A DNA stretch of 64,000 nucleotides, from positions 996,988 to 1,060,987 of the forward strand of contig NZ_JH719942.1 in assembly GCF_000275825.1 (NCBI RefSeq). Direction: 5' to 3'. The notes beneath the pieces were generated by a model. It had not been told where the DNA came from. It saw only the letters and a program-made list of their open reading frames with translations, and searched no databases. How positions within the stretch are numbered: the first letter of the stretch is position 1; every line of letters begins with the position of its first letter. This stretch comes from Saprospira grandis DSM 2844. Lineage in GTDB: Bacteria; Bacteroidota; Bacteroidia; Chitinophagales; Saprospiraceae. The position numbers and the translations under genes were made by a program. Positions 5,029-56,287 of the stretch are shown piece after piece.

Positions 5029-5060
5029 GAGGCCTTCCTTTTGGAAGGTCTCTTTTTTTT
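5029..5060 (+). terminator. Rho-independent terminator candidate after the S8 protease gene
   Basis: gaggccttcc-tttt-ggaaggtctc forms a 10-bp stem with one G-U, followed by T8. Confidence 0.5.
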
Positions 5061-18208: not shown

Positions 18209-18210
18209 AG

Positions 18211-19089: not shown

Positions 19090-19105
19090 ATGATTAGAAA
19101 CTACC

Positions 19106-20410: not shown

Positions 20411-20418
20411 GCAAAAGC

Positions 20419-21420
20419 ATGTCCGGTCTTTCATCTATTATATTTGCACAAGCTTGGGTCTTGCTTCTTTTGCCCTTACTGCCTTTGTTTTGGTATTGGC
20501 GGAAGCGGAGTTCCTATTATGCTGACTTAGAGTTATCTTCTACGGCGGGTTTGGGTTCGGCGCAGAGTTGGCGAAGTCGTTTGCGGCCTATATTGCCTTG
20601 GTTGCAGCTTTTGGTTTTGGGGAGTTTGATTTTGGCCTTGGCACGTCCGCAAAAGGTCTTGGTCAAGGAAAACATCAAGGCGGATGGCATTGACATTGTG
20701 GTGGCCTTAGATGTATCGAGTAGTATGTTGGCTCGGGACTTTAAGGAAGACCGTTTGGATGCTTCTAAGCGGGTGGTGCAGAGCTTTGTTGATCAGCGGC
20801 CCTACGATCGTTTGGGCCTAGTGCTTTTTGCGGGCCGCAGCTATACGCAATGTCCGTTAACGACAGATCATAGCATGCTCAAGCAGCTCATTAGCCGGGT
20901 AGAATGTGGCTTAATTGATGAGGGGACCGCCATTGGGATGGGCTTGGCCAATGCGGTTCGGCGTTTACAGAAGAGCCAGGTTAAAAGCAAAGTCATTATC
21001 TTATTGACCGATGGGGTAAATAACTCGGGGCGGATTCCGCCTTTGGTGGCTGTAGAAGCGGCCAAAAAGCTGGGGATAAAGGTCTATACGATTGGTGTAG
21101 GGACCAGAGGGCGGGCCTTGGCGCCCATTTACCGCAAGGCCAATGGCAGCTTTGTGTTTAGCCCCACCGAGGTAGAAATTGACGAAAAGCTTTTGCAGCA
21201 GATTGCCGAAAGCACCAGTGGGCTTTATTTTCGGGCCACAGATGAAAAAAGCCTAGAGAAAATTTATGCTCAGATTGACAAATTGGAGCGCTCAAAAATT
21301 GAGAAAGAAACCTTTGTTCGTCATCGGGAACTGTATCAGTACTTTCTATTTTTAGCCCTGAGTTTACTGCTCCTCCATCTTATTCTTCAACAAACGGTAT
21401 TGCGTAGCATCGTCCAATAG
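20419..21420 (+). CDS. batA: BatA-like vWA-domain membrane protein
   Basis: N-terminal TM helices followed by a vWA MIDAS motif DIVVALDVSSSMLARDF…LLTDGVNN. Confidence 0.8.
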   Translation: MSGLSSIIFAQAWVLLLLPLLPLFWYWRKRSSYYADLELSSTAGLGSAQSWRSRLRPILPWLQLLVLGSLILALARPQKVLVKENIKADGIDIVVALDVSSSMLARDFKEDRLDASKRVVQSFVDQRPYDRLGLVLFAGRSYTQCPLTTDHSMLKQLISRVECGLIDEGTAIGMGLANAVRRLQKSQVKSKVIILLTDGVNNSGRIPPLVAVEAAKKLGIKVYTIGVGTRGRALAPIYRKANGSFVFSPTEVEIDEKLLQQIAESTSGLYFRATDEKSLEKIYAQIDKLERSKIEKETFVRHRELYQYFLFLALSLLLLHLILQQTVLRSIVQ

Positions 21421-21429
21421 TCTTTTATT

Positions 21430-22440
21430 ATGCAGTTTGAATCACCCAGTTTGCTGGCCCTACTAGTCTGCATTCCCCTAATTATTATATTATTTATTAG
21501 GGCGCAGCGGCTCAATGCCCAAATTCGAGCTCGTTTTGGCAGTTGGACAGCCTTTCAGCGGATGATCCCTGCTTTTGCTCCTGGCCGCAACAAGCTCAAG
21601 TTTGTGCTTTCTACCTTGGCTCTTTCGCTAATGATTTTGGCTTGGGCCAATCCGAGGATGGGCAGTCGTAGCCGCAAAGTAGAGCGTGCTGGGGTAGATG
21701 TTTATCTGGCCCTTGATTTATCGAGGAGTATGTGGGCCAAAGATGTGCAGCCTAGGGGTATGGATCGTTTGGAGAAGGCCCGTTTATTTAGTTTAGATTT
21801 GCTTCAGGGTTTGGCCAATAATCGGGTGGGGCTTATCTTCTTTGCGGGAGAGGCTTTTTTGCAAATGCCGCTTACTTTGGACCATAGTTCGGCCCAGGTA
21901 TTTCTTTACAATGGCTTAGAAGAAGTAGAGCTTATTCAAGGGAGTACGCCCGAGAAAGTCTTGGAGCTGGTCCAAAAATCAGAAATACAGCCAGATGGCA
22001 AGCAGCATCAAAAAGCGGTTATTTTTGTTAGTGATGGAGAAGAACACAATCCTAAAACCTTAGAAGCGGCCAAAGCCGCCCGCAAAAATGGCGTATTTAG
22101 TTATACGATTAGTGTGGGCTCTAGCCAAGGGGCCAAAATTCCTCTGCAAAGAGAAAATGAACTGGGTTTTCATAGAGATAAGCGAGGAGAAGAAGTAGTG
22201 ACCGCTACCAACAAAAAGATGTTGGCCGAATTGGCCAAGGTAGGAGGTGGCCGCGCCTTTGATATTGACCAAGGGAAAAATATCTTGCCCGCCTTGCTCA
22301 AAGACTTTAAGAAATTGGAGCAACAAGAGTTTGATGAATTGCAATATGACGATTTTGACAGCTACTATCAGTATTTGTTGGCCCCTGCCCTGTTCCTGCT
22401 CCTCTTTGAGTTTTTTCTGGCCTACCGCAAAAAATCATAA
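21430..22440 (+). CDS. batB: BatB-like vWA-domain membrane protein
   Basis: DVYLALDLSRSMWAKDVQP MIDAS motif, VFVSDGEEH, C-terminal TM. Confidence 0.8.
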   Translation: MQFESPSLLALLVCIPLIIILFIRAQRLNAQIRARFGSWTAFQRMIPAFAPGRNKLKFVLSTLALSLMILAWANPRMGSRSRKVERAGVDVYLALDLSRSMWAKDVQPRGMDRLEKARLFSLDLLQGLANNRVGLIFFAGEAFLQMPLTLDHSSAQVFLYNGLEEVELIQGSTPEKVLELVQKSEIQPDGKQHQKAVIFVSDGEEHNPKTLEAAKAARKNGVFSYTISVGSSQGAKIPLQRENELGFHRDKRGEEVVTATNKKMLAELAKVGGGRAFDIDQGKNILPALLKDFKKLEQQEFDELQYDDFDSYYQYLLAPALFLLLFEFFLAYRKKS

Positions 22441-22443
22441 GCG

Positions 22444-23061
22444 ATGAGAGTAATTATTTTTCTGCTTTTTGCGCTCCCTTTGGGGCTATTGGCCCAAGAA
22501 CCTTCTCGGAAGAACTTGATTGAAGGCAATAAGCACTATCGGTTGGGCGAAAAAGAAAAAGCAGGGCAAAGTTATCAGAAAGCCCTGCAAACCGATGAAA
22601 ACAACAGCAAAGCCTGGTACAATCTGGGCAATGTCTTTTATCAGGCAGAAAATTATGAAGAGGCAGAACAACACTATAAAGAAGCCCTTCAGAAAGCAGA
22701 CAACCCCGAGCTAGAAGCTCGGGCCTACCATAACCTAGGAAACATCTACGCCAAAGAGAAAAAACTCAAAGAGGCTGTAGAAGCCTATAAGAATGCCCTG
22801 CGTATTCGGCCCAAAGATGTAGAAACCAAGCATAACTTGGCCCAGGTTCTCCGAACAATTAAGCAGCAGCAACCGCCGCCCCCTAAACCCAAGAATGACA
22901 ATAAAAAGGAGGAGGAACAACAAGAACCTCCGCCCTCCGATGAAATGTCTAAGGATGAAGTAGAACGCATGATGGACATGATTGAGGAGGAAGATAAAGA
23001 GACTCAAAAGAAAAAGAAGAAGCTTCCTAAAAATCGCCAAAATCCAGAAAAAGACTGGTAA
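22444..23061 (+). CDS. batC: BatC-like TPR-repeat protein with a lysine/glutamate-rich tail
   Basis: TPR repeats AWYNLGNVFYQAENYEEAEQHYKEAL and AYHNLGNIYAKEKKLKEAVEAYKNAL. Low-complexity KKEEEQQEPPP tail. Confidence 0.8.
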   Translation: MRVIIFLLFALPLGLLAQEPSRKNLIEGNKHYRLGEKEKAGQSYQKALQTDENNSKAWYNLGNVFYQAENYEEAEQHYKEALQKADNPELEARAYHNLGNIYAKEKKLKEAVEAYKNALRIRPKDVETKHNLAQVLRTIKQQQPPPPKPKNDNKKEEEQQEPPPSDEMSKDEVERMMDMIEEEDKETQKKKKKLPKNRQNPEKDW

Positions 23062-23083
23062 GCAAATTGTATTTATAATGAGC

Positions 23084-23126
23084 GGAAGGAAGCAGGGCTT
23101 CCTTCCACCTTTTATTCTTCATTTTT
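23084..23126 (+). terminator. Intra-operon hairpin / attenuator candidate between batC and the first batD-like gene
   Basis: ggaaggaagc-agg-gcttccttcc is a perfect 10-bp stem with a 3-nt loop, followed by accttttattcttcattttt. Confidence 0.5.
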
Positions 23127-23141
23127 AAATTCAACTGCATT

Positions 23142-23864
23142 ATGAAAACGCTTTTTAGTACTTTGATGGGACTCTTTTTTGCGCTTGGCCTAGGGGCCCA
23201 GTCGCCCACTATCTCACTAGAGGTTCCTTATGATACCGTAGGAACTCAAGATGTTTTTCAATTGCACTACCATATTGAGCATGCAGAGCAAGTAGAGTTC
23301 AAACAGCCCGATTTTATTGACTTTGAGGTAGTGGGGACCGCTAGCAACAGCCAAACCTCTATTATTAATGGGCAAAAGACTAGCAAAAAAACCTATAGCT
23401 TTAGCCTAAAGCCACGTTATGCGGGTTATTTGGCCCTACCTGCGGCTACGGCCTATATTGATGGGCAGAACTATAGCAGCCCCAATGGGTCTGTCTTTGT
23501 GGTAGAAGGAGCACTAAGAGGCAACAGCAAAGGAAATATTTTTGGCAATTCTCCCTTTTCTAATGACTCGCCTTTTGGCCAAGGCTTTAATATGCAACCC
23601 GATAATTTCAACTTTGATATGGAAGGCTTTGACGATTTGAGCGATGGCCGCATACAAGAACTAATGCAAAAACAAGAGGAACTCATGCAACGTTATTTGC
23701 AAAACCCCGATTCTCTGCTCAAACAACTAGATCCACAACTTAGAAATATGGACCAAGAATTTGAGGAGCTTTTTCGCCAAATGGAAGACCAGTTTCCCGG
23801 TTTGCTTGGACCAGATGCCCCCAAAAAGAAACAACCCAAAGAGCAAAAAACCTATCGGCTTTAA
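23142..23864 (+). CDS. Short BatD-like secreted protein (BatD N-domain paralog)
   Basis: Signal peptide. ISLEVPYDTVGTQDVFQLHYHIEHAE…FSLKPRYAGYLALPAATAYIDGQNYSSPNGSVFVVEG parallels the N-terminal domain of the downstream full-length BatD. Acidic low-complexity C-terminus. Confidence 0.55.
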   Translation: MKTLFSTLMGLFFALGLGAQSPTISLEVPYDTVGTQDVFQLHYHIEHAEQVEFKQPDFIDFEVVGTASNSQTSIINGQKTSKKTYSFSLKPRYAGYLALPAATAYIDGQNYSSPNGSVFVVEGALRGNSKGNIFGNSPFSNDSPFGQGFNMQPDNFNFDMEGFDDLSDGRIQELMQKQEELMQRYLQNPDSLLKQLDPQLRNMDQEFEELFRQMEDQFPGLLGPDAPKKKQPKEQKTYRL

Positions 23865-23879
23865 GGAAAGCAGCCAAGC

Positions 23880-24046
23880 GCAACTTGGCCTAGCGATGTG
23901 GAAGGGTGGCCGAAGGCCAGACCGAGGCAGCAAAGCTGCCGAAGGGCCGAGCAGACCTGCGAGCCCTGAAACGACAACAAGGCCGTTAGGCCGCAGTTCG
24001 ACGACCGAAGGGAGTAACCGCCTGCCGAAGGCAGGAGGCCCCAAAT
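23880..24046. repeat. REP/MITE-like element
   Basis: ggcctagcgatgtggaagggtggccgaaggccagaccgagg … gggccgagcagacctgcgagccc … gcaggaggccccaaa. Confidence 0.8.
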
Positions 24047-24086
24047 AAATAGATAAGTCAACAACTACCAGATTAAAACTACCGTT

Positions 24087-25838
24087 TTGAAAAGCTACCA
24101 GCTAAGTCTACTTCTCCTTAGTTTTTGGGCCATGAGCAGCAGCTTGTTGGCCCAAAAAATCGCTTTTGTAGCCGACTGCAACGCCTCTAAGGTGGTGCTA
24201 GGCAATGCCTTCAGACTCTCTTTTCGTTTAGAAAATGCCGAAATTAAGAAGATTCGATTTCCAGATTTTGAAGCCCAAGGCTTTCAAATTGTGGAGGGGC
24301 CTGTCAATGAGAGCCGATACACCAATATTAACGGCAACCGCTATACCTTTGAGGCCTATACCTTTAGTTTGGCCCCCAATAATGAGGGCAACTATACGAT
24401 TGGTCCCGCAGAAGTGACCACCTATGGCGGTAAGGTCCTGAAGACCATGCCCGTTAAGATTAAGTGCGTGGCCCCAAGTACTAGCAATGTACAAAGCCTA
24501 AATGACCACAACCTGCCCCCAGAATTGGCCGGAAAAGTGCTTTTTCGCCTCGAATGTGAACATAAAGAAGCCGTGGTGGGCGAACAAATTCGGCTCAATT
24601 ATAAGGTCTATACCCAAATTGACATTTCTAATATTGAGCTGGTCAAGGAACCCGAATTTCCTAAAATGTATACCAAAGAATATCGCTTCTTTGACAAAGA
24701 TCCTCGGGTAGAGGTTATCAATGGCCAACAATATGCCACGAAAATCATCTACTCCATGGGCGTTTTTCCGAGCAAAAATGGCGAACTGACCATTCCCCCC
24801 GCCGAAATCTTAATTAGTGTGGGCCGACAAGATCCCCGCAACCCTTTTGCCAGCCGCAGCCTCAAACAATACCCCCTGCTCAGCCTGCCCAAAACAATTC
24901 CCGTTCGCTCGCTTTCTGGCCAAGATAAAGATTATACGGGGGCCGTGGGCGAATACGAGATGGAGCTCTATCTGGAAAAAGATGAAATTACAACCGATGA
25001 AGCCCTAGAACTGGTGATGCGTATTCGGGGCCTAGGCGATATTAAACCCATCACGGCTCCTCCCCTCCATTTTAAGGAGGGCAGCTTCAAGATTTTGGAG
25101 GTTGAGCAAAAAGAAGATATCCGAGAAGGCGGCCAAGGCATTGGCGGCGAAAAAACCTTTAGCTATAAAATTGACCCGCAAGAAGTGGGTAATTTGAGCT
25201 TGCAAGCCAGCTTTGTCTACTTTGATGTACGCGACCGAAAAATGCTCCGCATAGATAGCAGTCTAGCAATTAAGGTAACACAAGGCAAACGCATCCTGAA
25301 CCAAGAGGTAGCCGAAAAAGCCGTAGATAGCAGCCAGGTACTAAGCATGCAAGCCGCCCTAAAATCAGCTAGTTGGCGGCCAATACCCCAGCCATTTTTT
25401 GGTACTTATCGCTTTTATCTGCTCAGTTTATTGCCCCTTTTGGCCTTTGGCGGAGGCTACTTGCTCCTTTTGGGCCAAAAGAAAAGCCAAGCGCTCAAAG
25501 AAAAACAAGCCCTAAAAAATGCCCCTTACCGACATGCGCAGGAGCAACTTCAACTAGCCAAAACAGCCCTAAAAACAGATACTGTAGGCGATTTCTATCG
25601 GGCCATTGAAGAGGCCCTAAAAGGCTATATCGGCCTGCAAATGGATATCCCTTTAGCAGAACGAAGCAAAGAACGCCTGCAAGCGCTTTTGCCCGAAAAA
25701 GAAGCGCAGGAACTAGGCGAAATCCTTGAGCATTGCGAACAAGCCCTCTTTGCTGGCCAATCTCCCCATAAAACCATGGAAGAACAACTCAAACATAGCC
25801 AAAAGCTTATTAAACAACTCGAAAAACGCCTCGCCTAA
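24087..25838 (+). CDS. batD: BatD-like oxygen-tolerance protein (full length, C-terminal TM anchor)
   Basis: Signal peptide. Repeated Ig-like BatD domains (FRLSFRLENAEI…YTFEAYTFSLAPNNEGNYTIGPAEVTTYGGKVLKTMPVKIKCV). Hydrophobic helix YRFYLLSLLPLLAFGGGYLLLL near the C-terminus. Confidence 0.75.
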   Translation: MKSYQLSLLLLSFWAMSSSLLAQKIAFVADCNASKVVLGNAFRLSFRLENAEIKKIRFPDFEAQGFQIVEGPVNESRYTNINGNRYTFEAYTFSLAPNNEGNYTIGPAEVTTYGGKVLKTMPVKIKCVAPSTSNVQSLNDHNLPPELAGKVLFRLECEHKEAVVGEQIRLNYKVYTQIDISNIELVKEPEFPKMYTKEYRFFDKDPRVEVINGQQYATKIIYSMGVFPSKNGELTIPPAEILISVGRQDPRNPFASRSLKQYPLLSLPKTIPVRSLSGQDKDYTGAVGEYEMELYLEKDEITTDEALELVMRIRGLGDIKPITAPPLHFKEGSFKILEVEQKEDIREGGQGIGGEKTFSYKIDPQEVGNLSLQASFVYFDVRDRKMLRIDSSLAIKVTQGKRILNQEVAEKAVDSSQVLSMQAALKSASWRPIPQPFFGTYRFYLLSLLPLLAFGGGYLLLLGQKKSQALKEKQALKNAPYRHAQEQLQLAKTALKTDTVGDFYRAIEEALKGYIGLQMDIPLAERSKERLQALLPEKEAQELGEILEHCEQALFAGQSPHKTMEEQLKHSQKLIKQLEKRLA

Positions 25839-26602
25839 TGCTACGCCTTTTTAGCCTCATTTTGCTCCTCGCCGTAGCAGCCCCAAGCTGGGCCCAACTG
25901 CCCGACAGCTTGGCCAAACAGTTTGCTATTGGCTATGCCCATTATGAAAAAGGAGATTACGAAAAAGCCCTTTCTGCATACCAAAAAGCAGCCTTGACAG
26001 GCTATTGCTCTGCCGAATTGCAAAATAATTTGGGGCTGACCTACGAAAAATTAGGCCAATATGGCCCCGCCGTCCTCGCCTTTGAACGCGCCCTCTTTTG
26101 CCAACCCCAATTTGCCGCCGCTCAAGACAACCTTAAGGCCATTTCCAGCAAATTAAGCCGTCCCAAAGCTCAAGAAAAAGCCGGTTTTATCTTCCAAACC
26201 TGGGACAATATGGCCGCTGGCCTCGGTAGCCATTTCTGGGCCTATAGCTTCCTGTTTTTCCTCTTTTTGGCCGCCGGTAGCCTCGCCTATTTTCTCTTTT
26301 TTTCAAAAAAACAAGGCAAAACTTGGCTGCTCATCCCCCTCAGCCTGCTGCTCGCTTTCTTTAGCTTTATGCTCAGCCGAAGAGCCAATTACCTGCAATT
26401 TAATCGCCAATGGGCCGTCGTCATGAGCCCAGAAGCCGCCATCCTAGACCAACCCTCTATCCAAGGCAAAGAAGTAGAACTGGTCGGCAGCGGAAATAAA
26501 GCCCTAATTCTAGAAGAAAAAGAAGATTGGTATTATGTTCGCTTGCCCAATGCCGTACAAGGCTGGATATCGGCCAAATTACTAGAAAAAGTACGCTCCT
26601 AA
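25838..26602 (+). CDS. batE: BatE-like protein (TPR N-domain, TM segments, C-terminal SH3b domain)
   Basis: TPR YAHYEKGDYEKALSAYQKA. Two TM helices. C-terminal SH3-like DWYYVRLPNAVQGWISAKLLEKV. Start overlaps the batD stop (ATGA-style coupling). Confidence 0.7.
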   Translation: MLRLFSLILLLAVAAPSWAQLPDSLAKQFAIGYAHYEKGDYEKALSAYQKAALTGYCSAELQNNLGLTYEKLGQYGPAVLAFERALFCQPQFAAAQDNLKAISSKLSRPKAQEKAGFIFQTWDNMAAGLGSHFWAYSFLFFLFLAAGSLAYFLFFSKKQGKTWLLIPLSLLLAFFSFMLSRRANYLQFNRQWAVVMSPEAAILDQPSIQGKEVELVGSGNKALILEEKEDWYYVRLPNAVQGWISAKLLEKVRS

Positions 26603-35924: not shown

Positions 35925-38900
35925 ATGATGCGTTATTTCCTATTGTTGCTCCTGCTTTGGAGTAGCGGGGCACTTTTGGCCCAAAAAGAAGATATTGAAT
36001 TGGTGGTGAGCCAAGGCCACCACAGTAATGTCCGCTGCCTAGCCTTTTCGGAAGATGGGCGTTTTTTGGCCACGGCTGGCGATGACCGCAGCCTGCGCAT
36101 TTGGTCGATGCGGCTACAGCAAGAGTATAAAGTCCTTTGGGGCCATAAGGCGGCTATTACGGATGTTGGTTTTTCTAAAGATGGGCAGTTTTTGGTCTCT
36201 ATCGGCAGTCGGTTGCTTTGTATTTGGTCTATGCCTGAAGGCAAACTTTTGCATCAGATAGAGGTAGATGCCCAGAGCAAACGCCTACAATTTTCGGAGA
36301 CTAAGCCAGGGCATGTGATGGTCCGACTACCCGAGGGCATAGCCTGGGTAGATTTAAAAACGGGGGCCATAGACTACAGCCCAAAGCCCTTTATGCGCAA
36401 TTGGAGCAACTGGATTTTGGGGCAAAAAACAGCCCGTGTGATTATTCCAGAACGGCTTGATAGCATTTGGGCCTATAGCCTAGCGGGCCAAAGAGAACAA
36501 CTATTTGTAGGCAAAGGGAGCTATTACAAGCTGCTGCTTTCGCCCAATGAGAATTATCTGGCGGCCTATTCCGGCAGCCGCATGGCCATAGATGTTTGGG
36601 CCTATAGCAGCGGGAAATTCATAGGCAGTATTGAGGGGCTCAATCCGGTACAAGACTTTTGTTTTGATATATCGGGCGAGCGGCTCTGGATTATGGACCT
36701 ACATGCCGAATGCAAGGTCTATAGCTGCCCTCAGCTCCAAGAAGAGCTAGTGGTCAATAAGAAAAGTTGGGGCAAAGAAGGCCTTGGTCAAGGCGATTTG
36801 GTGCAGGTAAATATTGGCCAGCAGATTCGCCCCAGCCCCAATGGGCAGTTTATGGGGCTGGCCATTACTCGCACCGAAGTGAACCGCAAGACGGGCAAGA
36901 TGAATGACCTCAGAGGACTGCAGTTAGTGGATGCCCAAACGGGCAAAGAAAGGGGGCTATTTAAGGGGCACTTTAAGTGGATCACCCAATTGGGCCTCTC
37001 GCCCAAAGGCGATAAACTCCTCTCTGTTAATATGGGTAAAACCCGAGGGCTGCGCTCTTGGTCCATCAAAAAAGGAGAAATTGAACGCTATATCCATAGC
37101 TCCCAAAGCCTTAGCCAAAGCCAAGATAAAAAACAACTGGCCCTACTTGAGTTTCATGAAAAATCTAATCCAGAACTAACGGTCTACCAACTCCCTAGTT
37201 TTAGAAAGCTGGCCAAAAAAAAGGTAGACAATTGCAGTGCCTTTGCCCTAAGTGGCGATGGCAAAAAAATAGTCGCCCTACAAGTAGATGTCAATCTTAA
37301 AAACCCCTTAAATAACCGCTTCTATTACTCTATTTGGAAGCTGCCCAACTACAAACTAGAACAAGAAATTGAGATTGAATCTAAGGAATCTGCCCTACCC
37401 ATATTTAAAAGTCTATTGCTTGATTCTGCTGGCGACTACCTCCTGGCCGCCGCCCAAAACCAAGCCTACAGCCTAGAGCTAAGCAGCCAAAAACGTACTC
37501 GATTTGCCCTGCCTAGCTCGGCTACTTATTGGCGAATGCTCTGCCTGCATCCGCAACAGCCCGCCCTACTCTTTGCGGTCAGTGAAGTCGTCTATAATCA
37601 AGAGAAAAAAAGAGTAGAGGAGCTAAGCAAGCTGCTGCTCTACAACTATAAAACAGGCGAACTCATCGAGGAAGTAAGCAGCCCCAAAGAGGGCATTATC
37701 CAAAGCGCAGCCTTTAGCCCAGATGGCCAATATTTATTGACGGGGCAAACGGCCTATCAGGAGGTCATCAACTTTGATGTGCTGCTCTGGGATTGGCCCC
37801 AAAAACAACTGCTCTGCCAATTTGAAGGACATAATGGCGGCATCAATGACTTGGCCTTTGACCCCCTCGGCAAAAAGGCTTATAGCTGCTCAGAAGATGG
37901 ATTGATTAAGGCCTGGGATATAGAAAAATGTGCCCTGGCCGCCTCTTTTATTGGCTATAATGAATTAGATTACCTCATTATCTCGCCCGAAAATTACTAT
38001 AAAACGAGCCGAAGCAATACCGCTGGGCTCGGCTTTAGATATGCTGGCGACCTCTATACCTATGATCAATTTGATCTCCGATTTAACCGCCCCGATAAGG
38101 TGCTCGCCCCCTTCACCAAGGCCCAACGCAAACTAAATATTTATACCAAGGCCTGGAAAAAAAGAGTGCGGCGACTCGGCTTTACCGAAGAACAACTAGA
38201 GCGCAAACTCCAACTCCCCGAACTCCAAATTGTCAATCAATTGCAACTGCCCATTTATGTAGAAGATAGCCTGATTCAATTCCAGATTCTAGCCTTCGAT
38301 GAGCAAGAGGAACTCAAAAAACTCCGCATCTTTGTCAATGGCGTGCCCTACCCTCAAGCTGAAGGCATCGAGCTAAGCAGCAGGGCCGGCGATAGTCTTC
38401 GCCAAGAGCTAAGCATTCCGCTGGGCCAAGGCCCCAACAAAATTCAACTCTCAGTGGTCAATGCCGCAGGCCTAGAAAGTGCAAAACAGAGCTTTCAACT
38501 CGCCTACCAACCCAAAGAAAAACAAGCCAGCCAACTCTACTTTTTGGGCCTTGGAGTCAGTGAGTTTAGAGATAGTAGCCGCAATTTGAAGTACCCCCAG
38601 AAAGATGCCCAAGATTTAGGCAAGGCCCTAGCCCATGCCAGAAAAGAGGAAGGGGTTCACCAACTTTTACTAGACCCCAATGCCCCTCTAGAGCAACTGC
38701 AAAAAAGCGCTAGAGCCTTTATGCTACAAGCCAAAATCAATGACCAAATTGTCTTTTATATCTCTTCGCATGGCCTGCTAGACGACAGCCTAAACTACTA
38801 TCTAGCCCTCCCCAACAGCCAATTTGAGCAACCCCAAAATGGAAGCTGGGCCTATGATGATATGGAGCAATTACTAGATGGGCTCCCCTGCCGCAACCGC

Positions 38901-39356
38901 CTGCTCCTGCTTGATGCCTGCCACTCTGGAGAGGTCGATAAGGAGGTAGAAACCGAGAAGAAGTCGGTCAGTAGCTTTGCCCAAAACATCCTCAAAAGAA
39001 GCAAGTCGGGCAGTACCCTGATTCGGCCCAAAACAGGACTCAACAACTCTTTTGCCTATATGAAGGCCCTCTTTTCGGACCTAGAACAGCAGCGGGGAGT
39101 CACGGTTATTTCTGCCGCTGGCGGCTTCGAGCTGGCCTATGAATCCGATGAATGGGGCAACGGCCTCTTTACCTACGCCCTTTTAGAGGGCATCAAAAGC
39201 AAGAAAGCCGACCTCAATAATGATGGCCAAATCCCCATCCTAGAACTGCGGGATTTCCTTAGCCAAAGGGTGCTAGAGCTCAGCCAGGGCCAACAGCAAC
39301 CCACCGCCCGTCAATCCAATGTTTTCAATAATTTTATCCTCTACCGTTATGATTAG
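35925..39356 (+). CDS. Secreted WD40-repeat protein with a C-terminal caspase-like (peptidase C14 / CHAT-type) domain
   Basis: Signal peptide MMRYFLLLLLLWSSGALLAQ. WD40 repeats (GHHSNVRCLAFSEDGRFLATAGDDRSLRIWSM; GHKAAITDVGFSKDGQFLVS; GHNGGINDLAFDPLGKKAYSCSEDGLIKAWD). C-terminal His/Cys dyad context IVFYISSHG … NRLLLLDACHSG, typical of caspase-fold proteases. The track ORF starts at 35742, but those first 61 codons are REP sequence. Confidence 0.8.
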   Translation: MMRYFLLLLLLWSSGALLAQKEDIELVVSQGHHSNVRCLAFSEDGRFLATAGDDRSLRIWSMRLQQEYKVLWGHKAAITDVGFSKDGQFLVSIGSRLLCIWSMPEGKLLHQIEVDAQSKRLQFSETKPGHVMVRLPEGIAWVDLKTGAIDYSPKPFMRNWSNWILGQKTARVIIPERLDSIWAYSLAGQREQLFVGKGSYYKLLLSPNENYLAAYSGSRMAIDVWAYSSGKFIGSIEGLNPVQDFCFDISGERLWIMDLHAECKVYSCPQLQEELVVNKKSWGKEGLGQGDLVQVNIGQQIRPSPNGQFMGLAITRTEVNRKTGKMNDLRGLQLVDAQTGKERGLFKGHFKWITQLGLSPKGDKLLSVNMGKTRGLRSWSIKKGEIERYIHSSQSLSQSQDKKQLALLEFHEKSNPELTVYQLPSFRKLAKKKVDNCSAFALSGDGKKIVALQVDVNLKNPLNNRFYYSIWKLPNYKLEQEIEIESKESALPIFKSLLLDSAGDYLLAAAQNQAYSLELSSQKRTRFALPSSATYWRMLCLHPQQPALLFAVSEVVYNQEKKRVEELSKLLLYNYKTGELIEEVSSPKEGIIQSAAFSPDGQYLLTGQTAYQEVINFDVLLWDWPQKQLLCQFEGHNGGINDLAFDPLGKKAYSCSEDGLIKAWDIEKCALAASFIGYNELDYLIISPENYYKTSRSNTAGLGFRYAGDLYTYDQFDLRFNRPDKVLAPFTKAQRKLNIYTKAWKKRVRRLGFTEEQLERKLQLPELQIVNQLQLPIYVEDSLIQFQILAFDEQEELKKLRIFVNGVPYPQAEGIELSSRAGDSLRQELSIPLGQGPNKIQLSVVNAAGLESAKQSFQLAYQPKEKQASQLYFLGLGVSEFRDSSRNLKYPQKDAQDLGKALAHARKEEGVHQLLLDPNAPLEQLQKSARAFMLQAKINDQIVFYISSHGLLDDSLNYYLALPNSQFEQPQNGSWAYDDMEQLLDGLPCRNRLLLLDACHSGEVDKEVETEKKSVSSFAQNILKRSKSGSTLIRPKTGLNNSFAYMKALFSDLEQQRGVTVISAAGGFELAYESDEWGNGLFTYALLEGIKSKKADLNNDGQIPILELRDFLSQRVLELSQGQQQPTARQSNVFNNFILYRYD

Positions 39357-40512
39357 TTTCTTTTCTTTTGGGGCCTCCGCTGCGGCCAAAGGCCTTGCGG
39401 CGCTACGTTCCGGGGCTCGCAAGTCTGCTCGGCCCTTCGGCGGCATAGCCGCCTCGGTCTGCGGCTGCGCCGCCCCCCTCCACATCGCTAGGCCAAAACC
39501 AAAAACTGCCCTAGGGGCAGCCAAAAAGGGCCTTTCGGCCCTAGTACTAAATGCGCCGAATACCGCCCAACAGGCTGGCAAGTCGCCCTTTCTTTTGGGC
39601 CTTTTGCTGCTGTTGTTCTTGGGCCTACTGCCCGCCTGCCAGCCTGCTCAATCGGCAGAGGCAGAGCCCGCCCCCCTCCTTGCCAATAGTAACCCAATAG
39701 ATAGTTTGCCCCCAAGCCAACTCCCCCCCGCTATTCGCCAAGAGCCACAGCCTCGGCTAGCCCTATTTAGCGACAGTCTGACGACCCTAAGGATTGGGGG
39801 GCATCAGGTGGATATACAACTGCCCAAGACCCCCTTTAAGGGCAGTGTGATTATTTTGCCTGGCTATAATTTCCCGAAGGAGGATGCCTGCCAAAAAGCC
39901 CCTCTCTTTTGCCAGACCTTTTTGGAGGCGGGTTATCTACTCATTATGCCCGAGATGGGACGCTCCTTATATAGTAGTCAGTATTTTCCAGAAACCCAGG
40001 CTCGTTACAAGCGCTATCCCGACCAAAACTGGGTATTAGATAGTCTGCTCCCATATTTGCAGCTAGAATATGGGCTATTAGTAGATGGGCAAGACAATTT
40101 CTTAGTGGGCATTTCTACGGGGGGCCGAGGAGCGGCTCTTTTGGCCTTGGCTGCGCCCGAGTGTTGGACCGCAGTGGCCTGCCTGTCTGGAGATTTTGAC
40201 CAAAGCCAGATGCCCAATGATGGACTGATGCGCAACTTTTATGGACCTTATATACAATTTAGTCAGCGCTGGAAAACGGTGGATAATGTTATTGCTCGCA
40301 TAGACGACTGGCAAACCCCTATTTTTATTGGGCATGGCGGAGCCGATAAGGTGGTCCCGCCTGCCCAGTCTAAACAACTTTTTGATAGCTTGCAAAGCCG
40401 TTTAGATCAGGAGCTACTCTATTACTCTGCTCCCCCCAAGGCCGAGCACAACTATGCTTATTGGGGCGCTGAGGCCAAAAACATACTGGCCTTTTTTCAA
40501 TCATTGCCTTAG
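39319..40512 (+). CDS. Alpha/beta-hydrolase esterase (lipoprotein); start codon unresolved
   Basis: GxSxG nucleophile VGISTGGRGAALLA. IGHGGADKVVP and the C-terminal region are esterase-like. Lipobox …LLLLFLGLLPAC. The ATG at 39319 overlaps the upstream gene and reads through a REP copy. Probable true start is a TTG near 39595, just before the signal peptide. Confidence 0.6.
   Translation: MFSIILSSTVMISFFSFGASAAAKGLAALRSGARKSARPFGGIAASVCGCAAPLHIARPKPKTALGAAKKGLSALVLNAPNTAQQAGKSPFLLGLLLLLFLGLLPACQPAQSAEAEPAPLLANSNPIDSLPPSQLPPAIRQEPQPRLALFSDSLTTLRIGGHQVDIQLPKTPFKGSVIILPGYNFPKEDACQKAPLFCQTFLEAGYLLIMPEMGRSLYSSQYFPETQARYKRYPDQNWVLDSLLPYLQLEYGLLVDGQDNFLVGISTGGRGAALLALAAPECWTAVACLSGDFDQSQMPNDGLMRNFYGPYIQFSQRWKTVDNVIARIDDWQTPIFIGHGGADKVVPPAQSKQLFDSLQSRLDQELLYYSAPPKAEHNYAYWGAEAKNILAFFQSLP
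39366..39495. repeat. REP/MITE-like element
   Basis: ttttggggcctccgctgcggccaaaggccttgcggcgctacgttccggggctcgcaagtctgctcggcccttcgg … ccacatcgctaggcc. Confidence 0.8.
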
Positions 40513-40542: not shown

Positions 40543-40583
40543 GCCCCCTAGTTGCTTGCCGCAGCTAGGGGGCTTTGTTGTTT
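40543..40583 (+). terminator. Terminator candidate after the esterase gene
   Basis: gccccctag-ttgcttgccgcag-ctagggggc is a 9-bp stem followed by tttgttgttt. Confidence 0.4.
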
Positions 40584-40724
40584 GGGCTATGCGCTAGCTG
40601 AGACTATTTAAAATATGCTGCATTTATTTTTTATCGCCTAGGGACAAGCCCCTAGGCTAGCTTTTCGGACAGCCCTCTGCGAGGGCCTTTATTTTATTCC
40701 AACATACAAAATATTGAGGTTTCT

Positions 40725-40997
40725 CCTCGGAAGGGGTTACCCTACCCCTCAAGAGGGGTTACCCTACCCCTCAAGAGGGGTTACCCTACCCCTCAAGAGG
40801 GGTCACTCTACCCATCGGAAGGGGTTTCCCTACCCCTCAAGAGGGGTCACTCTACCCCTCGGGAGGGGTCACTCTATCCCTCGGGAGGGGTTACTCTACC
40901 CATCGGGAGGGGCTGCCCTACCCCTCAAGAGGGGTTTCCCTACCCATCGGGAGGGGTTACTCTACCCCTCAGGAGGGGTTACTCTACCCCTCGGGAG
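40725..40997. repeat. Tandem array of ~12 copies of a 22-bp hairpin-forming unit (consensus tacccctcaagaggggttaccc)
   Basis: Direct reading: …gaggggttaccctacccctcaagaggggttaccctacccctcaagaggggttaccctacccctc… with point variants (ggtcactctacccatcgg etc.). Each unit carries gaggggt/acccctc complementary arms. Confidence 0.9.
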
Positions 40998-41341
40998 GAA
41001 AATACTAGCAATAAAGAGGGGGAGATGGATTTAAAGACAATATAAAAACAGTCATTTACTCCTTTACATCACTACAGCTGAGCAACTTTTACAACCTTCT
41101 GACTGATAGCAATGCGCAGGCCCTCAGCTAGAAATAGTCCTTAAAACAACTGCTAACAAGAGCCAAAACTCTATAAAACACAAAAAAATAGCCTATTAAA
41201 GTATTTTTTATTAGTTATAACTTGCATTATAAAATTATTTACCCTATGTTTATAACGCAAATAACGCAAGAGCACATTGCTTTTACTAAAGAGCTCTAGT
41301 TGTTAGACATCTAATTCTTAATCAAATAAATACCTAGTACT

Positions 41342-41934: not shown

Positions 41935-42168
41935 GGGTGGCGGCAGCAATGGCCCGCAGGGCCAAACGGCCACAACAAAGCCTTTAGGCTGCAGTTCGAC
42001 GACTGAAAGGAGTAACCGATGCGGCAGCAATGGCCCGCAGGGCCAAACGGCCTAGCGATGCGGCGGGGTGGCCGTCAGGCCAGACCGAGGAGCGAAGCGA
42101 CGAAGGGCCGAGCAGACCTGCGAGCCCCAAAGCGTAGCGCCGCAGCGAAGCTGCGGAGGCCCCAAATA
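41935..42168. repeat. REP/MITE-like element with an internal ~32-bp duplication
   Basis: cggcagcaatggcccgcagggccaaacggcc occurs twice. Followed by ggcctagcgatgcggcggggtggccgtcaggccagaccgagg … gggccgagcagacctgcgagccccaaagc … ggaggccccaaa. Confidence 0.8.
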
Positions 42169-43260: not shown

Positions 43261-44478
43261 ATGACTAAAAACTACCAATCACTGCTACGGGCAGTAGAAC
43301 GAGAGCGAGAATTTCATAATAAGACAGCTAGGATTACAGGGGCGAACTACAATGTCTTTAGTCTATTGCAATTAGATCGAAAAGAAGATAAACTACATAG
43401 TCCCTTTATAGCGGATTTACTCCATCCTCAGGGCAGTCATCAGCAGGGGACAGTATTCTTAAAGGCCTTTATAAACATGCTCACTCAGAAATTTGAGGAT
43501 CTATCTAAACTAAGCAACTTAAAAGCAGAGCGGACTCGAGTCAATACTGAGGAATTTATAGGCAAAGTGAGAGCAAATGAAGGTGGTCGCATAGATATCT
43601 ATATTACAGATGGGCTACACACTATTGCAATCGAGAATAAAATTGATGCGGACGATCAAGAGAATCAACTATTGCGTTATGCTAATCATTTGAAAGGGAA
43701 AGAGAATACGGCTTTGCTCTACTTAAATCTAAAAGGGAGAGCTCCTTCAGAAAAGAGTACTAAGAGAAAATTAGTAGAAGGTACAGACTACTATGGGCTT
43801 TCTTATCAGAAAGATATTTTAACTTGGTTAGAGGACTGCAAGCGTATTGCAGTAGATCTACCTATTCTTAGAGAATGTTTGAAGCAGTATATTAACACTA
43901 TAAAAGAACTTTGCGGAATGAGCCTAAACGAAGACAAAAAGAAAGAAATAGAAAAGCTTATTAAGCATCATTTTGGGGCCGCATTAGATATTGCCACTCA
44001 TTTTGAAGCAGTTCGGCTTCAAATTATAAATGATTTTAGGATAGACCTTATTGACTACTTAACAGAAAACCTAGATAGTGCCATTTATCGGGTAGAGCCT
44101 TGCTTCGAGATTAACGCTAAGTACTCTAAAATTGTAATTCTGCCGCATAAAGAAAAGCACCCTTATAAACTTTACTTTAACATTGAATCCTTTAGTGCTG
44201 AGGGGTATTGGGGAGGCGACCTATATGTTGGTCTTCTCGCTAACCCTGGTCGTGGAGGCCTCAGTGACCAAGAAAAAAAAATTCTATCGGGAGAAGGCTT
44301 AAAGGGCTGGCTTCCTAAAAAGGAAAACTTAAATGTAAACACCAAAGAAGAAGCAACACTCAAACAGCTTAGTCAAGAAAAAAGTCGTAAGCAGCTAGTA
44401 GAACAACTAGGGCTACAGTGCGTACAGTTTATCCAAGAGCATGAGGACTTGCTAAAAAATTTATACAGGAAGTTTTAG
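43261..44478 (+). CDS. PD-(D/E)xK nuclease-family protein (PDDEXK_4-like N-domain plus uncharacterised C-domain)
   Basis: N-domain …EDKLHSPFIADLLHPQGSHQQGTVFLKAFINML… then GGRIDIYITDGLHTIAIENKIDADDQENQLLRYANHL (D…E-N-K catalytic-core pattern). AT-rich codon usage unlike the flanking genome. Confidence 0.55.
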   Translation: MTKNYQSLLRAVEREREFHNKTARITGANYNVFSLLQLDRKEDKLHSPFIADLLHPQGSHQQGTVFLKAFINMLTQKFEDLSKLSNLKAERTRVNTEEFIGKVRANEGGRIDIYITDGLHTIAIENKIDADDQENQLLRYANHLKGKENTALLYLNLKGRAPSEKSTKRKLVEGTDYYGLSYQKDILTWLEDCKRIAVDLPILRECLKQYINTIKELCGMSLNEDKKKEIEKLIKHHFGAALDIATHFEAVRLQIINDFRIDLIDYLTENLDSAIYRVEPCFEINAKYSKIVILPHKEKHPYKLYFNIESFSAEGYWGGDLYVGLLANPGRGGLSDQEKKILSGEGLKGWLPKKENLNVNTKEEATLKQLSQEKSRKQLVEQLGLQCVQFIQEHEDLLKNLYRKF

Positions 44479-44588
44479 GCTGCGAGGCAGAGGAAGTAAG
44501 CTAGGAAATAAAAAAGCATTATGGATTAGTACTTAAGCTCTAATTAAACGTATCTTACTTCTAATTAAAACACCTAATATAGAAACAA

Positions 44589-46046
44589 ATGATTCGCATA
44601 AATCATATACATATAGATGGGTTTAAAGACTCTGAAGACCAAAAAGATATCCAACTAGCCCGTGGTCCTATTACAGTTATTTATGGAGAGAATGGCTCTG
44701 GTAAAACCACTTTACTTCAACTGCTTTTTGCCTTTCTTAACAAAGATGAACTTACACTCAACCGTCAACAAGTACAAAAAATAGAAATTAACTACACAAT
44801 TGACGGCCTAGAGAAAGTAGCCTCTGCTAAAAACATAAGTACCTGGACAGTAGGTTTTGAATGGAATAACTGGGAAGAGCTCACACAAATCAAGAGTATC
44901 TTTCTAAGCGTTATGAGAAGTTCTAATGAAAGCAAAACAAGAGCAACACACGATAACCAACACTTTATTTTAGGTGATTTTTCGGATGAACGAGACTTAA
45001 GAGAAACGCTCAAAAAACTAGAACAACTACTTTTTGAGGCTAATAAAGAGCAATATCTTGGTGTACTTCATAGCTCTATACGGAAAATAAGATTAGCTAT
45101 AGATGATTTTTATCATAATTACAAAATGGATTTCAAGGGAGCCTCTCCTAAAAAATTACTAGAGATTCTAAATCAATTAGATTTACTGATTAGTATTGCT
45201 TCTAAAAAGGGAAGCCAAGAATTCAGTTCAAAATTGCAAGAATTAAGTAGTAAGCTTCAGCATTTTTGTACCATGAGCGGCTATTCAGATCTTGAACCAA
45301 TTAAGTTTGAGGATGATATGAGCCATATTCCTCACTATAATGTTCATCAACTATCTGCTAACGAAATCAGTAAAATTCTGACTAACTATTATAAAGCAGG
45401 GCAAGAACAAATTAGAGAAAATATCAACTTAGCCTTTTTTGACACTATTGAAAAAGCAATAGAAATAGAGACTGAAAAAAATAGCTTTGATCTTCCTAAG
45501 GATTTTAATACCCGTATTGCTAGACATGCTGACTATATTCTTCAAGCAGTACAAATTCACACATCAAGTCTAGCTGATAAAGTTCGTATGTTCTTAAAGG
45601 AAGGGGAAAATGCTCCTATCCCAGATAGTAAAATATTTAGAGCTCTTCTTCTTGAAGTGCTAAAAAGTGCTGAGCAAAAAAATCTAAAGCTTGAGGCTAT
45701 AGAAAAACTTCAAGAAGTTTTCAATTCCCATTTGTACAAAGGCAAAAAACTAATTATAACAAAAGAACAAGCCTATATCTCTATAAAAGAAAATAGAGGG
45801 CATACACTCCAAGAGTTATCAAGTGGTGAAAAGCAACTACTAAATATATTGACTTTCATTCTTTTATTGAGTAGAGAACGAAAACTCATCCTAATTGATG
45901 AGCCCGAAATCTCTCTTAACATAAAATGGCAGCGCAACTTCATTCCACTCTTGCAAGAGCTTAATCAAGATGCACAAATCATTGTTGCTTCTCATAGCCC
46001 TTCTATTGCGTACAAAAAAACAGAAACACTAGTAGAGTTGCTCTAA
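44589..46046 (+). CDS. ABC/SMC-like (AAA_15/21-type) ATPase, AriA-like
   Basis: Walker A IYGENGSGKTTLLQLLFAF near the N-terminus. Long helical insert. Signature LSSGEKQLLNILTFILL. Walker B KLILIDEPEISLN. H-loop IVASHSPS. Confidence 0.6.
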   Translation: MIRINHIHIDGFKDSEDQKDIQLARGPITVIYGENGSGKTTLLQLLFAFLNKDELTLNRQQVQKIEINYTIDGLEKVASAKNISTWTVGFEWNNWEELTQIKSIFLSVMRSSNESKTRATHDNQHFILGDFSDERDLRETLKKLEQLLFEANKEQYLGVLHSSIRKIRLAIDDFYHNYKMDFKGASPKKLLEILNQLDLLISIASKKGSQEFSSKLQELSSKLQHFCTMSGYSDLEPIKFEDDMSHIPHYNVHQLSANEISKILTNYYKAGQEQIRENINLAFFDTIEKAIEIETEKNSFDLPKDFNTRIARHADYILQAVQIHTSSLADKVRMFLKEGENAPIPDSKIFRALLLEVLKSAEQKNLKLEAIEKLQEVFNSHLYKGKKLIITKEQAYISIKENRGHTLQELSSGEKQLLNILTFILLLSRERKLILIDEPEISLNIKWQRNFIPLLQELNQDAQIIVASHSPSIAYKKTETLVELL

Positions 46047-46058
46047 ACCCTTAGTTTG

Positions 46059-47003
46059 ATGATCTCAAATGATATTCACGAATGTTTAGCTGCTGCAATT
46101 ATGGCTGGCAGTCCCACCATCCTCATAGAAGGAAAAGACGATGAAGAAGTCTATACCAATATTAGCAATGAACTAGGGCTAACATTAGAGTTTCTCCCCA
46201 TAGATTTTGTAGACACAACTGGCTATGGGGTTTTGGGTAATTGTGATCAGCTTGTAGCTAGCCTAAGGGACTTAGACAACAGCTGTAAAGACCCTAAATG
46301 GATCAAATTTATTGGTGGAGTTATAGACCTAGATAGTCGCAGCTTTGCCAATCAAATTAGTAGGCCGCCTAGGAATCTATACATATTAAAGATGTATTCT
46401 ATTGAGTCCTACTTTGTTAATCAGGAGAGCTTTATTGCCGTATTCAATAGTCTCAACTCTGCACCTATTTCCAATGCGCTTAAAGACAGTTACTACAATG
46501 ATTTTAATAGCTTCTTTGCCCCTGTAGAAGAGGAGCTTTTTTGGGTGGCTACAGAGGCGCTACAAAATGTTTGTGGGGCTAATCCTAGTCCTGAAATTAC
46601 ATACGGTGTTGACTTTAGTTTTAAAGGCTATATGCAAGCGCCTTCAGTCAACCCTAAGCGGCAGATAGTTGATCGGATTCAAGCTAAAAAGGAAGCTTTA
46701 AGAAGTTGGTTAAACAATGCTTTTAGTACTGCCGTTATACAAAAACAGCTCATCATTAAGGGGAAATGGTGGCTATCCGTTTTTTTAGATATTATTGTTG
46801 AATATGCTAAAAAGCTAGAAGCAGACTGCAGTTTCGCCCCTTCTGGTCCTTGTCGCTATTGTGCTATAGAAGATAAAGGTAACTGTCAATTCAAACTCAA
46901 AGTTAAAAGTCCAACGCCAGCGGCACTTAAGGCAATGGCCTATCAGACCTCCGTATCTGATCAAGATCCTGGGCTCTGCAATTTTCTGGAGTTGTTTAAT
47001 TAA
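46059..47003 (+). CDS. Small TOPRIM-like protein (DUF4435/AriB-like) coupled to the upstream ATPase
   Basis: PTILIEGKDDEEVY (TOPRIM Glu in an hEG motif) and, ~65 aa later, IGGVIDLDS (DxD). 12-bp gap from the upstream ATPase. The track ORF begins at TTG 46056; ATG 46059 preferred. Confidence 0.5.
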   Translation: MISNDIHECLAAAIMAGSPTILIEGKDDEEVYTNISNELGLTLEFLPIDFVDTTGYGVLGNCDQLVASLRDLDNSCKDPKWIKFIGGVIDLDSRSFANQISRPPRNLYILKMYSIESYFVNQESFIAVFNSLNSAPISNALKDSYYNDFNSFFAPVEEELFWVATEALQNVCGANPSPEITYGVDFSFKGYMQAPSVNPKRQIVDRIQAKKEALRSWLNNAFSTAVIQKQLIIKGKWWLSVFLDIIVEYAKKLEADCSFAPSGPCRYCAIEDKGNCQFKLKVKSPTPAALKAMAYQTSVSDQDPGLCNFLELFN

Positions 47004-56127: not shown

Positions 56128-56256
56128 GGGGCCTCCCGCCTGTGGCGGGCGGTTACTCCCTTTGGTCGTCGAACTTCGCCCTAAAGGGCTTGTTGTCGCT
56201 TTGGGGCTCGCAGGTCTGCTCGGCCCTGCGCGGCTTTCAGCCGCTAGGTTGTTTTG
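56127..56256. repeat. REP/MITE-like element
   Basis: ttttggggcctcccgcctgtggcgggcggttactccctttggtcgtcgaacttcgccctaaagggcttgttgtcgctttggggctcgcaggtctgctcggccctgcg. Confidence 0.8.
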
Positions 56257-56287
56257 GGCCGATGGGCTAAAGCCCATTTGCGCTGAG

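Follow-up and report, generated by a model that had tools for sequence, protein, structure and literature searches.

A probable exported protease of the metacaspase/orthocaspase type, with WD40 propellers, in Saprospira grandis and other Bacteroidota

The window analysed here, a 64,000-nucleotide stretch of the Saprospira grandis DSM 2844 genome (contig NZ_JH719942.1, positions 996,988 to 1,060,987), carries at 35925–39356 on the forward strand a gene for a protein that joins WD40 β-propellers to a C-terminal caspase-like domain. We suggest that this protein is quite probably a Sec-exported cysteine protease of the metacaspase/orthocaspase type (MEROPS C14B-like), about 127 kDa when mature, that acts in the cell envelope. 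The gene and the parts of its product are as follows, positions being those of the window.

35925–39356, + strand: complete coding sequence, 1143 residues plus stop; product 100% identical to WP_002657631.1 / EJF52582.1
35925–35981, + strand: Sec / signal peptidase I signal peptide, residues 1–19 (MMRYFLLLLLLWSSGALLA), read from the sequence and homologue N-termini; predicted cleavage before Gln20
35982–38006, + strand: tandem β-propellers, residues 20–694, about 14 four-stranded blades; canonical WD40 at the two ends only, middle blades degenerate
36006–36305 (residues 28–127) and 37770–38000 (residues 616–692), + strand: canonical WD40 repeats (Pfam)
38007–38219, + strand: small conserved α/β linker domain, residues 695–765, from model secondary structure; invariant Q, D, R, P, D
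38067–38096, + strand: linker signature QFDLRFNRPD (family alignment)
38220–38519, + strand: Ig-like β-sandwich, residues 766–865; seven strands in the AlphaFold2 models, with a predicted local distance difference test score (pLDDT) of about 90
38520–39353, + strand: caspase-hemoglobinase-fold protease domain (Peptidase_C14), residues 866–1143, from Pfam, invariant residues, profile alignment and Foldseek
38769–38771 and 38919–38921, + strand: codons of catalytic His949 and Cys999; acidic S1 residues Asp894 and Asp997
38925–39047, + strand: Lys/Arg-rich disordered loop directly after the catalytic Cys, residues 1001–1041 (SGEVDKEVETEKKSVSSFAQNILKRSKSGSTLIRPKTGLNN); pLDDT below 50 in both models
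39210–39245, + strand: EF-hand-like DxNxDGxIxxxE loop (DLNNDGQIPILE), residues 1096–1107, in the C-terminal part of the caspase domain; candidate Ca2+ site

The gene lies in a single open reading frame (ORF) spanning 35742–39356(+), and a GC-rich intergenic repeat (copy at 35818–35889) falls within the first 61 codons of this frame. As the starts of the homologues all coincide with the ATG at 35925, we take 35925–39356 as the true coding sequence, which is exactly the interval proposed in the initial annotation, made by a model from the sequence without database searches. The gene is already annotated at the domain level: the DSM 2844 entry (WP_002657631.1 / EJF52582.1) bears the names 'caspase family protein' and 'WD40 repeat-containing protein', and the orthologue in strain Lewin is H6L4Q1 / SGRA_1240. 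Promoter and terminator scans gave results at chance level, the one Bacteroidetes-type TAnnTTTG motif, at 35464, being a consensus match only, and an Rfam scan of the window returned zero matches.

Both of the domain models by which the initial annotation proposed to check the protein scored above their Pfam cut-offs. WD40 reached 113 bits for a cut-off of 27, its canonical repeats being confined to both ends of the propeller region, and Peptidase_C14 (PF00656) covered residues 877–1137 with 44.0 bits in the full protein and 48.6 bits in the isolated domain (cut-off 21.4). Where that annotation had written C14/CHAT, C14 stands and CHAT falls away, as CHAT (PF12770) was not among the best 25 of the 32 Pfam families listed and was not found in the isolated caspase domain at E ≤ 1. 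In the full-length AlphaFold2 model (pLDDT 78; predicted template modelling score, pTM, 0.70) the chain is all-β up to residue 694, the 58 strands of residues 25–694 making up about 14 four-stranded blades in two propellers, and continues into a small α/β linker (residues 696–760), an Ig-like sandwich (766–861) and an α/β domain (871–1141). With WD40 repeats above the Pfam threshold and closed propellers, the protein is a member of the WD40 propeller class. A separate model of the last 454 residues (pLDDT 77, pTM 0.78) matched MALT1, GSU0716, AtMC4, TbMCA2 and caspase-7 in Foldseek with probability 1.00 and E-values down to 2e-9; as modelled, the C-terminal domain has the caspase-hemoglobinase α/β fold. 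The linker and Ig-like domains gave zero Pfam matches at E ≤ 1, and each has its own family motif, the strongly conserved QFD.(K/R)(F/Y)NRPD in the linker and VN.VP ... LS.G.N.I..S..N..G.ES in the Ig-like domain.

In the N-terminus, MMRYFLLLLLLWSSGALLA followed by QKED, the n-region is basic, the hydrophobic core is 13 residues long, and a small-x-small site stands before the Gln at +1; the cleavage site is read as ALLA followed by Q. Every full-length homologue from the first search likewise starts with a signal peptide, and Q20 hardly varies across a 19-sequence alignment. In a sample of 151 family proteins, 112 had a Met start and a hydrophobic N-terminus, the others being mostly gene fragments, and a small residue plus Gln followed the hydrophobic core in 106 of these 112 N-termini, as against 24% of random internal windows. 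By its sequence the protein thus conforms to the Q-rule for Sec/signal peptidase I-exported Bacteroidota proteins, under which Gln stands at +1 of the signal peptidase I substrates of Bacteroidetes (PMC5837995). The signal peptide followed by WD40 repeats had been correctly recognized in the initial annotation, which also singled the protein out as exported, a reading that holds for export but not as a peculiarity of this protein, the same N-terminal pattern running through the family. There is no Cys in the signal peptide, and a lipobox-like motif was found in only 4 of the 112 family N-termini. A T9SS (type IX secretion system) sorting domain, a check of which the initial annotation had suggested, was absent by Pfam (Por_Secre_tail / CHU_C), the protein ending with the last strand of the caspase fold; Por_Secre_tail is present in three other proteins of the window, an S8 protease (294–4997), a SprB-like adhesin (9395–15052) and a protein at 27734–29635. 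The best reading is of a soluble periplasmic or outer-membrane-associated protein.

In the C-terminal domain, the motifs FYISSHG (residues 944–950) and LLLLDACHSG (residues 993–1002) bear out the His/Cys dyad contexts, YISSHG and LLLDACHSG, that the initial annotation had picked out, and D894, D940, H949, G950, D997 and C999 are invariant in the 19-sequence alignment. A family profile compared with the PDB aligned SSHG with YSGHG, DACHSG with DSCHSG and YPQKD with GCVND of Arabidopsis metacaspase-4 (AtMC4), and also aligned to GSU0716 and Yca1; with a single-sequence phmmer query (C-terminal 455 residues) there was no match in the PDB, metacaspases being reached only by the profile. As H949 and C999 align with the catalytic His and Cys motifs of AtMC4, we assign them as the catalytic dyad. 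In the same alignment the D of GCVND corresponds to D894, and that of DSC to D997. C14B enzymes owe their cleavage after Arg/Lys to two acidic S1 residues, which in TbMC2 are Asp95 and Asp211 (PMC6426788), and since D894 and D997 stand at the acidic S1 positions of metacaspases, cleavage after Arg/Lys is predicted here as well. By sequence, dyad, pocket and predicted fold, the protein belongs to peptidase family C14, in its basic-specificity branch C14B. The basic loop of residues 1001–1041 sits at the place of processing in caspases and metacaspases and may thus be a linker for autoprocessing or activation. The loop DLNNDGQIPILE matched EF-hand_1 at E = 0.007, below the Pfam cut-off, and is retained in the family proteins P0002, P0003, P0006 and P0012 and shortened in other members; as the match is sub-threshold and the loop is kept in part of the family, we offer Ca2+ binding at this site only as a hypothesis.

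Comparison with known systems places the protein near, and yet apart from, several of them. Orthocaspases (Microcystis MaOC1; GSU0716, PDB 3BIJ) share with it the caspase-hemoglobinase fold, the motifs (S/Y)xHG and D(A/S)CHSG and two acidic S1 residues, and GSU0716 is among its best matches in both sequence and fold; the characterised ones differ in that their p20 domain is N-terminal, whereas the protease domain here comes last, after the signal peptide, both propellers, the linker and the Ig-like domain. To our knowledge, the characterised orthocaspases are cytoplasmic. Eukaryotic metacaspases (AtMC4, 6W8S; Yca1, 4F6O; TbMCA2, 4AFR) were matched best by the sequence profile, which aligned their dyad and the acidic residues of GCxND and DxC, and they resemble the protein in having a disordered region after the catalytic Cys, but they are only 13–16% identical to it, lack propellers and are not exported. 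Metacaspases are Ca2+ dependent; where they have an Asp cluster, the candidate Ca2+ site here is the EF-hand-like loop. The top Foldseek match was the MALT1 paracaspase (caspase-Ig3; E 2e-9, TM-score 0.71 on the target), which is an Arg-specific protease of clan CD and has an Ig domain next to the protease domain. In MALT1, however, the Ig domain follows the protease rather than preceding it, the identity is 15–16%, and MALT1 is a eukaryotic cytoplasmic signalling protein. Gingipains of Porphyromonas (RgpB/Kgp, family C25) resemble it as Bacteroidota cysteine proteases of clan CD that are exported, are specific for Arg/Lys and have an Ig-like domain; they belong to C25 and not C14, leave the cell by the T9SS by means of a C-terminal sorting domain that is absent here, and have no propellers. 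Periplasmic β-propeller proteins such as BamB, NirF/cd1 nitrite reductase and AztD are 7–13% identical, and none of them is fused to a protease.

C14 and WD40 are also combined in the caspase–NACHT/NB-ARC–WD40 STAND proteins of cyanobacteria, actinobacteria and others, WD40 being the commonest partner domain of prokaryotic caspase homologues (10.9%; PMC3501461). Here, in contrast, the domain order is reversed, the protein is exported and there is no NTPase: a P-loop NTPase was not among the Pfam matches (best 25 of 32 families) or NCBIfam matches listed, nor was one found in scans of residues 126–615 and 690–882. An ATP-driven apoptosome-like switch is impossible for the family. Classification as a STAND protein, a T9SS cargo, a lipoprotein or a homologue of the vault protein TEP1 was in each case rejected, the defining domains or motifs not being found in the protein. 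The domain combination is known, and possible extracellular prokaryotic caspase homologues have already been noted (PMC3501461), but the specific exported layout is not described in the literature searched, which yielded no experimental study of a signal peptide, two propellers, an NRPD linker, an Ig domain and a C-terminal caspase in this arrangement and no papers on exported, periplasmic or secreted caspases or metacaspases.

The C-terminal 454 residues (the module), searched against 1.84 billion cluster representatives, matched 22126 proteins at E ≤ 0.001, of which 3288 reached E ≤ 1e-30. The best 150 matches each cover essentially the whole module, nearly always at the C-terminus of a protein that is mostly 1000–1300 and sometimes up to 2265 residues long. 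At least 546 stretches of GTDB contigs, nearly all of them from Bacteroidota, encode the module in a scan of one genome per species, which shows distribution and local context and in which Saprospira itself was not among the matches listed. Bacteroidota account for at least 76 of the 80 best genome matches, and the matches include Aureispira, other Saprospiraceae, Microscillaceae, Cytophagales, Flavobacteriales, Crocinitomicaceae, Chitinophaga, Bacteroidales and Marinilabiliales. Two of those 80, L069 and L077, lie in bins assigned to Isosphaeraceae (Planctomycetota) and Pyrinomonadaceae (Acidobacteriota), which could reflect horizontal transfer or mis-binning. The closest relatives of the Saprospira protein among the matches listed are metagenomic, P0002 at 79% and P0003 at 42% identity, with Aureispira at 40–46% over the module.

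Within the family the propellers evolve about twice as fast as the caspase module, with about 17% as against 35% identity to more distant members. Family genes often form tandem arrays of 3–6 paralogues, as at L004, L044, L060, L063, L080, L084 and L086, and in the six arrays measured (L004, L044, L063, L079, L080 and L086) mean pairwise identity was 23–36% in the N-terminal region and 35–65% in the C-terminal module, most starkly in L063 (23% vs 65%). The propellers of tandem arrays are about 25% identical, and the C-terminal modules up to 65–92%. Such divergence of the propellers beside conservation of the module is in keeping with a recognition part that varies and a catalytic part, linked to it, that stays constant. 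The co-directional genes upstream vary by lineage: 14 loci have a putative outer-membrane barrel of about 250 residues, 8 have a lipoprotein of about 340 residues with a weak likeness to VWA, and 5 have an exported protein of 256 residues, and none of these proteins has a significant Pfam match. The barrel-like gene (product ending ...LQYYKQ) directly precedes the WD40–caspase gene in Bacteroidales (L022, L025, L036, L041, L042, L046, L054, L055, L072–L074, L087), and the lipoprotein gene (VWA 23.2 bits, cut-off 23.8) does so in other lineages (L019, L032, L035, L039, L061, L071). The barrel and the lipoprotein may be lineage-specific partners of the protease. A universal partner gene, sought across the family loci, was not found, and Saprospira lacks the lineage-specific upstream genes. 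By inspection of their N-termini, the neighbours of family genes in other lineages also look exported.

In the mechanism that we propose for an envelope protease of this kind, the protein, once cleaved before Gln20, would remain periplasmic or keep to the outer membrane's inner face, where the fast-evolving propellers would bind a substrate or ligand (protein or peptide) and so set specificity, and the constant linker–Ig–caspase module would cut after Arg/Lys. The basic, disordered loop of about 40 residues after Cys999 would serve as the site of autoprocessing or activation, and the EF-hand-like loop might confer Ca2+ dependence, as in metacaspases. The physiological role would most likely be the processing or turnover of envelope proteins or peptides. 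Several points weigh against this view. The judgement on signal-peptide cleavage draws on features of the sequence and on conservation within the family, and passage across the outer membrane by a route other than the T9SS, for example in vesicles, is possible. P1 specificity, autoprocessing and Ca2+ binding are predictions from homology, and for the last of these the EF-hand match falls below the Pfam threshold and the loop is shortened in many members. For the Saprospira gene, neither a substrate nor a partner conserved beside it was identified, and biochemical or localisation data for any family member were not found in the literature searched.

Of the other explanations, the one that survives best is that the protein is a sensor-effector of envelope conflict or programmed cell death, in which the variable propellers would sense foreign or damage-associated molecules in the periplasm, for example components of phage, predator or prey, and would then activate the constant caspase module to cleave envelope targets. 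The tandem arrays, with 3–6 paralogues of divergent propellers and conserved caspase module, speak for it, as do the links of WD40–caspase fusions elsewhere to conflict and cell-death systems (PMC3501461), a weak PADLOC 'caspase' match (24 bits) and a small defence islet 4–7 kb downstream. Against this, no STAND NTPase, effector-associated domain or known defence partner was found; the NCBIfam model for caspases of the EACC1-associated type (NF047832) reached 75 bits against a cut-off of 140, with no EACC1 or NTPase component found; and the Saprospira gene is single-copy in the window, among housekeeping and envelope genes. Divergent binding domains beside a constant catalytic domain would, moreover, be equally expected of ordinary paralogous hydrolases. 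We regard a role of this kind as unlikely.

Somewhat less probable again is that the protein is an extracellular digestive or predation protease, released by predatory Saprospira to break down prey proteins and working with the products of the two genes that flank it:

33512–35440, − strand: S9 (prolyl-oligopeptidase family) peptidase with an N-terminal propeller and the lipoprotein signal LGSSC; given as context, a partner role not being demonstrated
39319–40512, + strand: esterase / polyhydroxybutyrate-depolymerase-like α/β hydrolase, downstream; annotated 5' end overlaps the WD40–caspase gene by 38 nt and crosses the repeat at 39363–39494

The protein is itself exported and stands between two exported hydrolases, both with lipoprotein signals, and its closest genome relatives, among the matches listed, are in Aureispira, other Saprospiraceae or Microscillaceae. 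It lacks, however, the T9SS C-terminal domain that the secreted S8 protease and the adhesins of the window possess, and the family is abundant in Bacteroidales, Flavobacteriales and other lineages that are not predatory. The arrangement with the two hydrolases is also limited to the closest relative (79% identity, L001): when the S9 peptidase and the esterase were searched by tblastn against 84 family loci, each with at most 10 kb of flank on either side, depending on the length of the contig, they were found only there. The esterase probably starts near its lipobox, LLGLLPAC (about 39590–39640), rather than at ATG 39319, and may do so at a TTG, an in-frame ATG being absent near the lipobox; the 38-nt overlap, considered as a sign of translational coupling, was set aside as probably an artefact of an ORF extended through a repeat element. 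A strong terminator-like hairpin lies 3' of the esterase at 40543–40573.

A catalytically dead scaffold that uses the caspase fold for binding only, for which the occurrence of pseudo-orthocaspases in bacteria (PMC6426788) offers a precedent, is very improbable: the dyad and both S1 aspartates are invariant, and of 149 family representatives 139 have the dyad motifs, which argues against a pseudo-enzyme.

The remaining explanation concerns a neighbour to which the initial annotation drew attention, a major vault protein (MVP) homologue:

30737–33265, + strand: MVP homologue, MVP_shoulder 104 bits

As that annotation had noted, the MVP gene ends about 2.7 kb (2659 bp) upstream of the WD40–caspase gene, with the S9 peptidase between them. 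This homologue is already in the literature (PMC3762200; bioRxiv 10.1101/872010), where neither report mentions a caspase or WD40 neighbour. If the protein were a bacterial counterpart of TEP1 on MVP particles, the proximity would mark a functional module, and a sub-threshold match to Beta-prop_TEP1_2nd could be cited in its favour. With 64.9 bits for a cut-off of 89, that match takes only ninth place among the generic propeller models, and Pfam found neither TROVE nor NACHT in the protein; what it has in common with TEP1 of eukaryotic vaults is WD40 propellers only, so that the parallel drawn in the initial annotation comes down to generic WD40 similarity. The N-terminus of the MVP homologue carries no signal peptide, so that the two proteins, one of them exported, would be in different compartments, and an opposite-strand gene and repeat elements separate the two genes.

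Nor is the linkage conserved, in tests that address local linkage rather than a genome-wide phyletic profile. Among the 84 family loci, with flanks of at most 10 kb a side, tblastn found MVP in none. The 79% relative keeps the S9 and esterase neighbours on a contig that stops short of where MVP would lie, the neighbours of the 42% relative over 4.4 kb upstream are unrelated ones, and MVP was not found beside two distant family members with 10-kb flanks. In the reverse direction, seven MVP loci whose MVPs are 55–67% identical to that of Saprospira contained no module, S9 peptidase or esterase, and their neighbours differ in each. MVP is far more conserved than the WD40–caspase protein, with more than 6000 proteins at E ≤ 1e-20, many of them 55–70% identical across metagenomic lineages, and it stays so in lineages where the WD40–caspase family is not nearby. 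We thus give almost no credence to a vault accessory, and the proximity is best read as the coincidence that the initial annotation had supposed; on our reading as an envelope protease there would be no functional connection with the cytoplasmic MVP homologue. The main result for the locus is in this respect negative, in that the bacterial MVP homologue has no conserved adjacent WD40 or TEP1-like partner gene, and the WD40–caspase gene consequently gives no handle on bacterial vault biology. MVP itself appears always as a single gene in unrelated contexts (the window; L005–L007, L088–L091). A PIG-L deacetylase (29859–30575) lies immediately upstream of it in the window, L006 has another, of 65% identity, at a distance of 3.5 kb, and in L088 MVP is followed by two large ORFs (1182 and 840 residues) that have no Pfam match.

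Elsewhere in the window, GC-rich hairpin-forming repeats fill almost every intergenic gap in both orientations, with cores GGGCCGAGCAGACCTGCGAGCC and GGCCTAGCGATG...GGTGGCCGAAGGCCAGACC and no match in Rfam. These repeats create spurious 5' extensions of ORFs, of 61 codons for the WD40–caspase gene and probably about 90 for the esterase.

5045–5298, 9104–9306, 19160–19434, 23873–24022, 29675–29794 and 33255–33399: GC-rich repeats (examples)
35818–35889, 39363–39494, 42035–42147, 56148–56230 and 61955–62104: further GC-rich repeats

The defence-type islet lies at 43261–47003 and comprises a PD-(D/E)XK_4 protein whose full length matches the PADLOC candidate system PDC-S26 (389 bits), an AriA/PtuA-like AAA ATPase (44589–46046) and an unannotated ORF of 315 residues (46056–47003); it falls in a low-GC patch (GC 0.35 at 44001–46000, about 0.47 elsewhere). 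PADLOC matches to the WD40–caspase protein itself (HEAT-ARM 30 bits, caspase 24 bits) are weak and generic and were rejected as evidence of a defence system. Tandem repeat arrays are present at 40681–41032 (22-nt period, about 16 copies), where a 106-residue ORF without a Pfam match (40714–41034) covers the array, and at 56233–56503 (42-nt period, about 6 copies). The genes at 17213–26602 appear to form a Bat-type (Bacteroides aerotolerance-like) operon, of which BatD and a TPR/SH3 protein were confirmed by Pfam.

Prokaryotic caspase homologues are usually discussed as cytoplasmic death or signalling proteases. A bolder proposal, which we think improbable, is that the exported WD40–caspases of Bacteroidota form an extracytoplasmic recognition-and-proteolysis system, free of NTPases, in which rapidly diversifying propellers, often encoded in tandem arrays of 3–6 paralogues, would be receptors for foreign or damage-derived molecules in the periplasm and would trigger a constant metacaspase-like effector; if true, this would be a periplasmic, ATP-independent analogue of the cytoplasmic caspase-based immune and death sensors. 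With thousands of Sec-exported members in Bacteroidota that share a fixed propeller–linker–Ig–caspase layout, an intact dyad and variable propellers, the family would represent a class of envelope proteases that is so far unexplored, and the phylum in which it occurs counts major gut and marine bacteria among its members.

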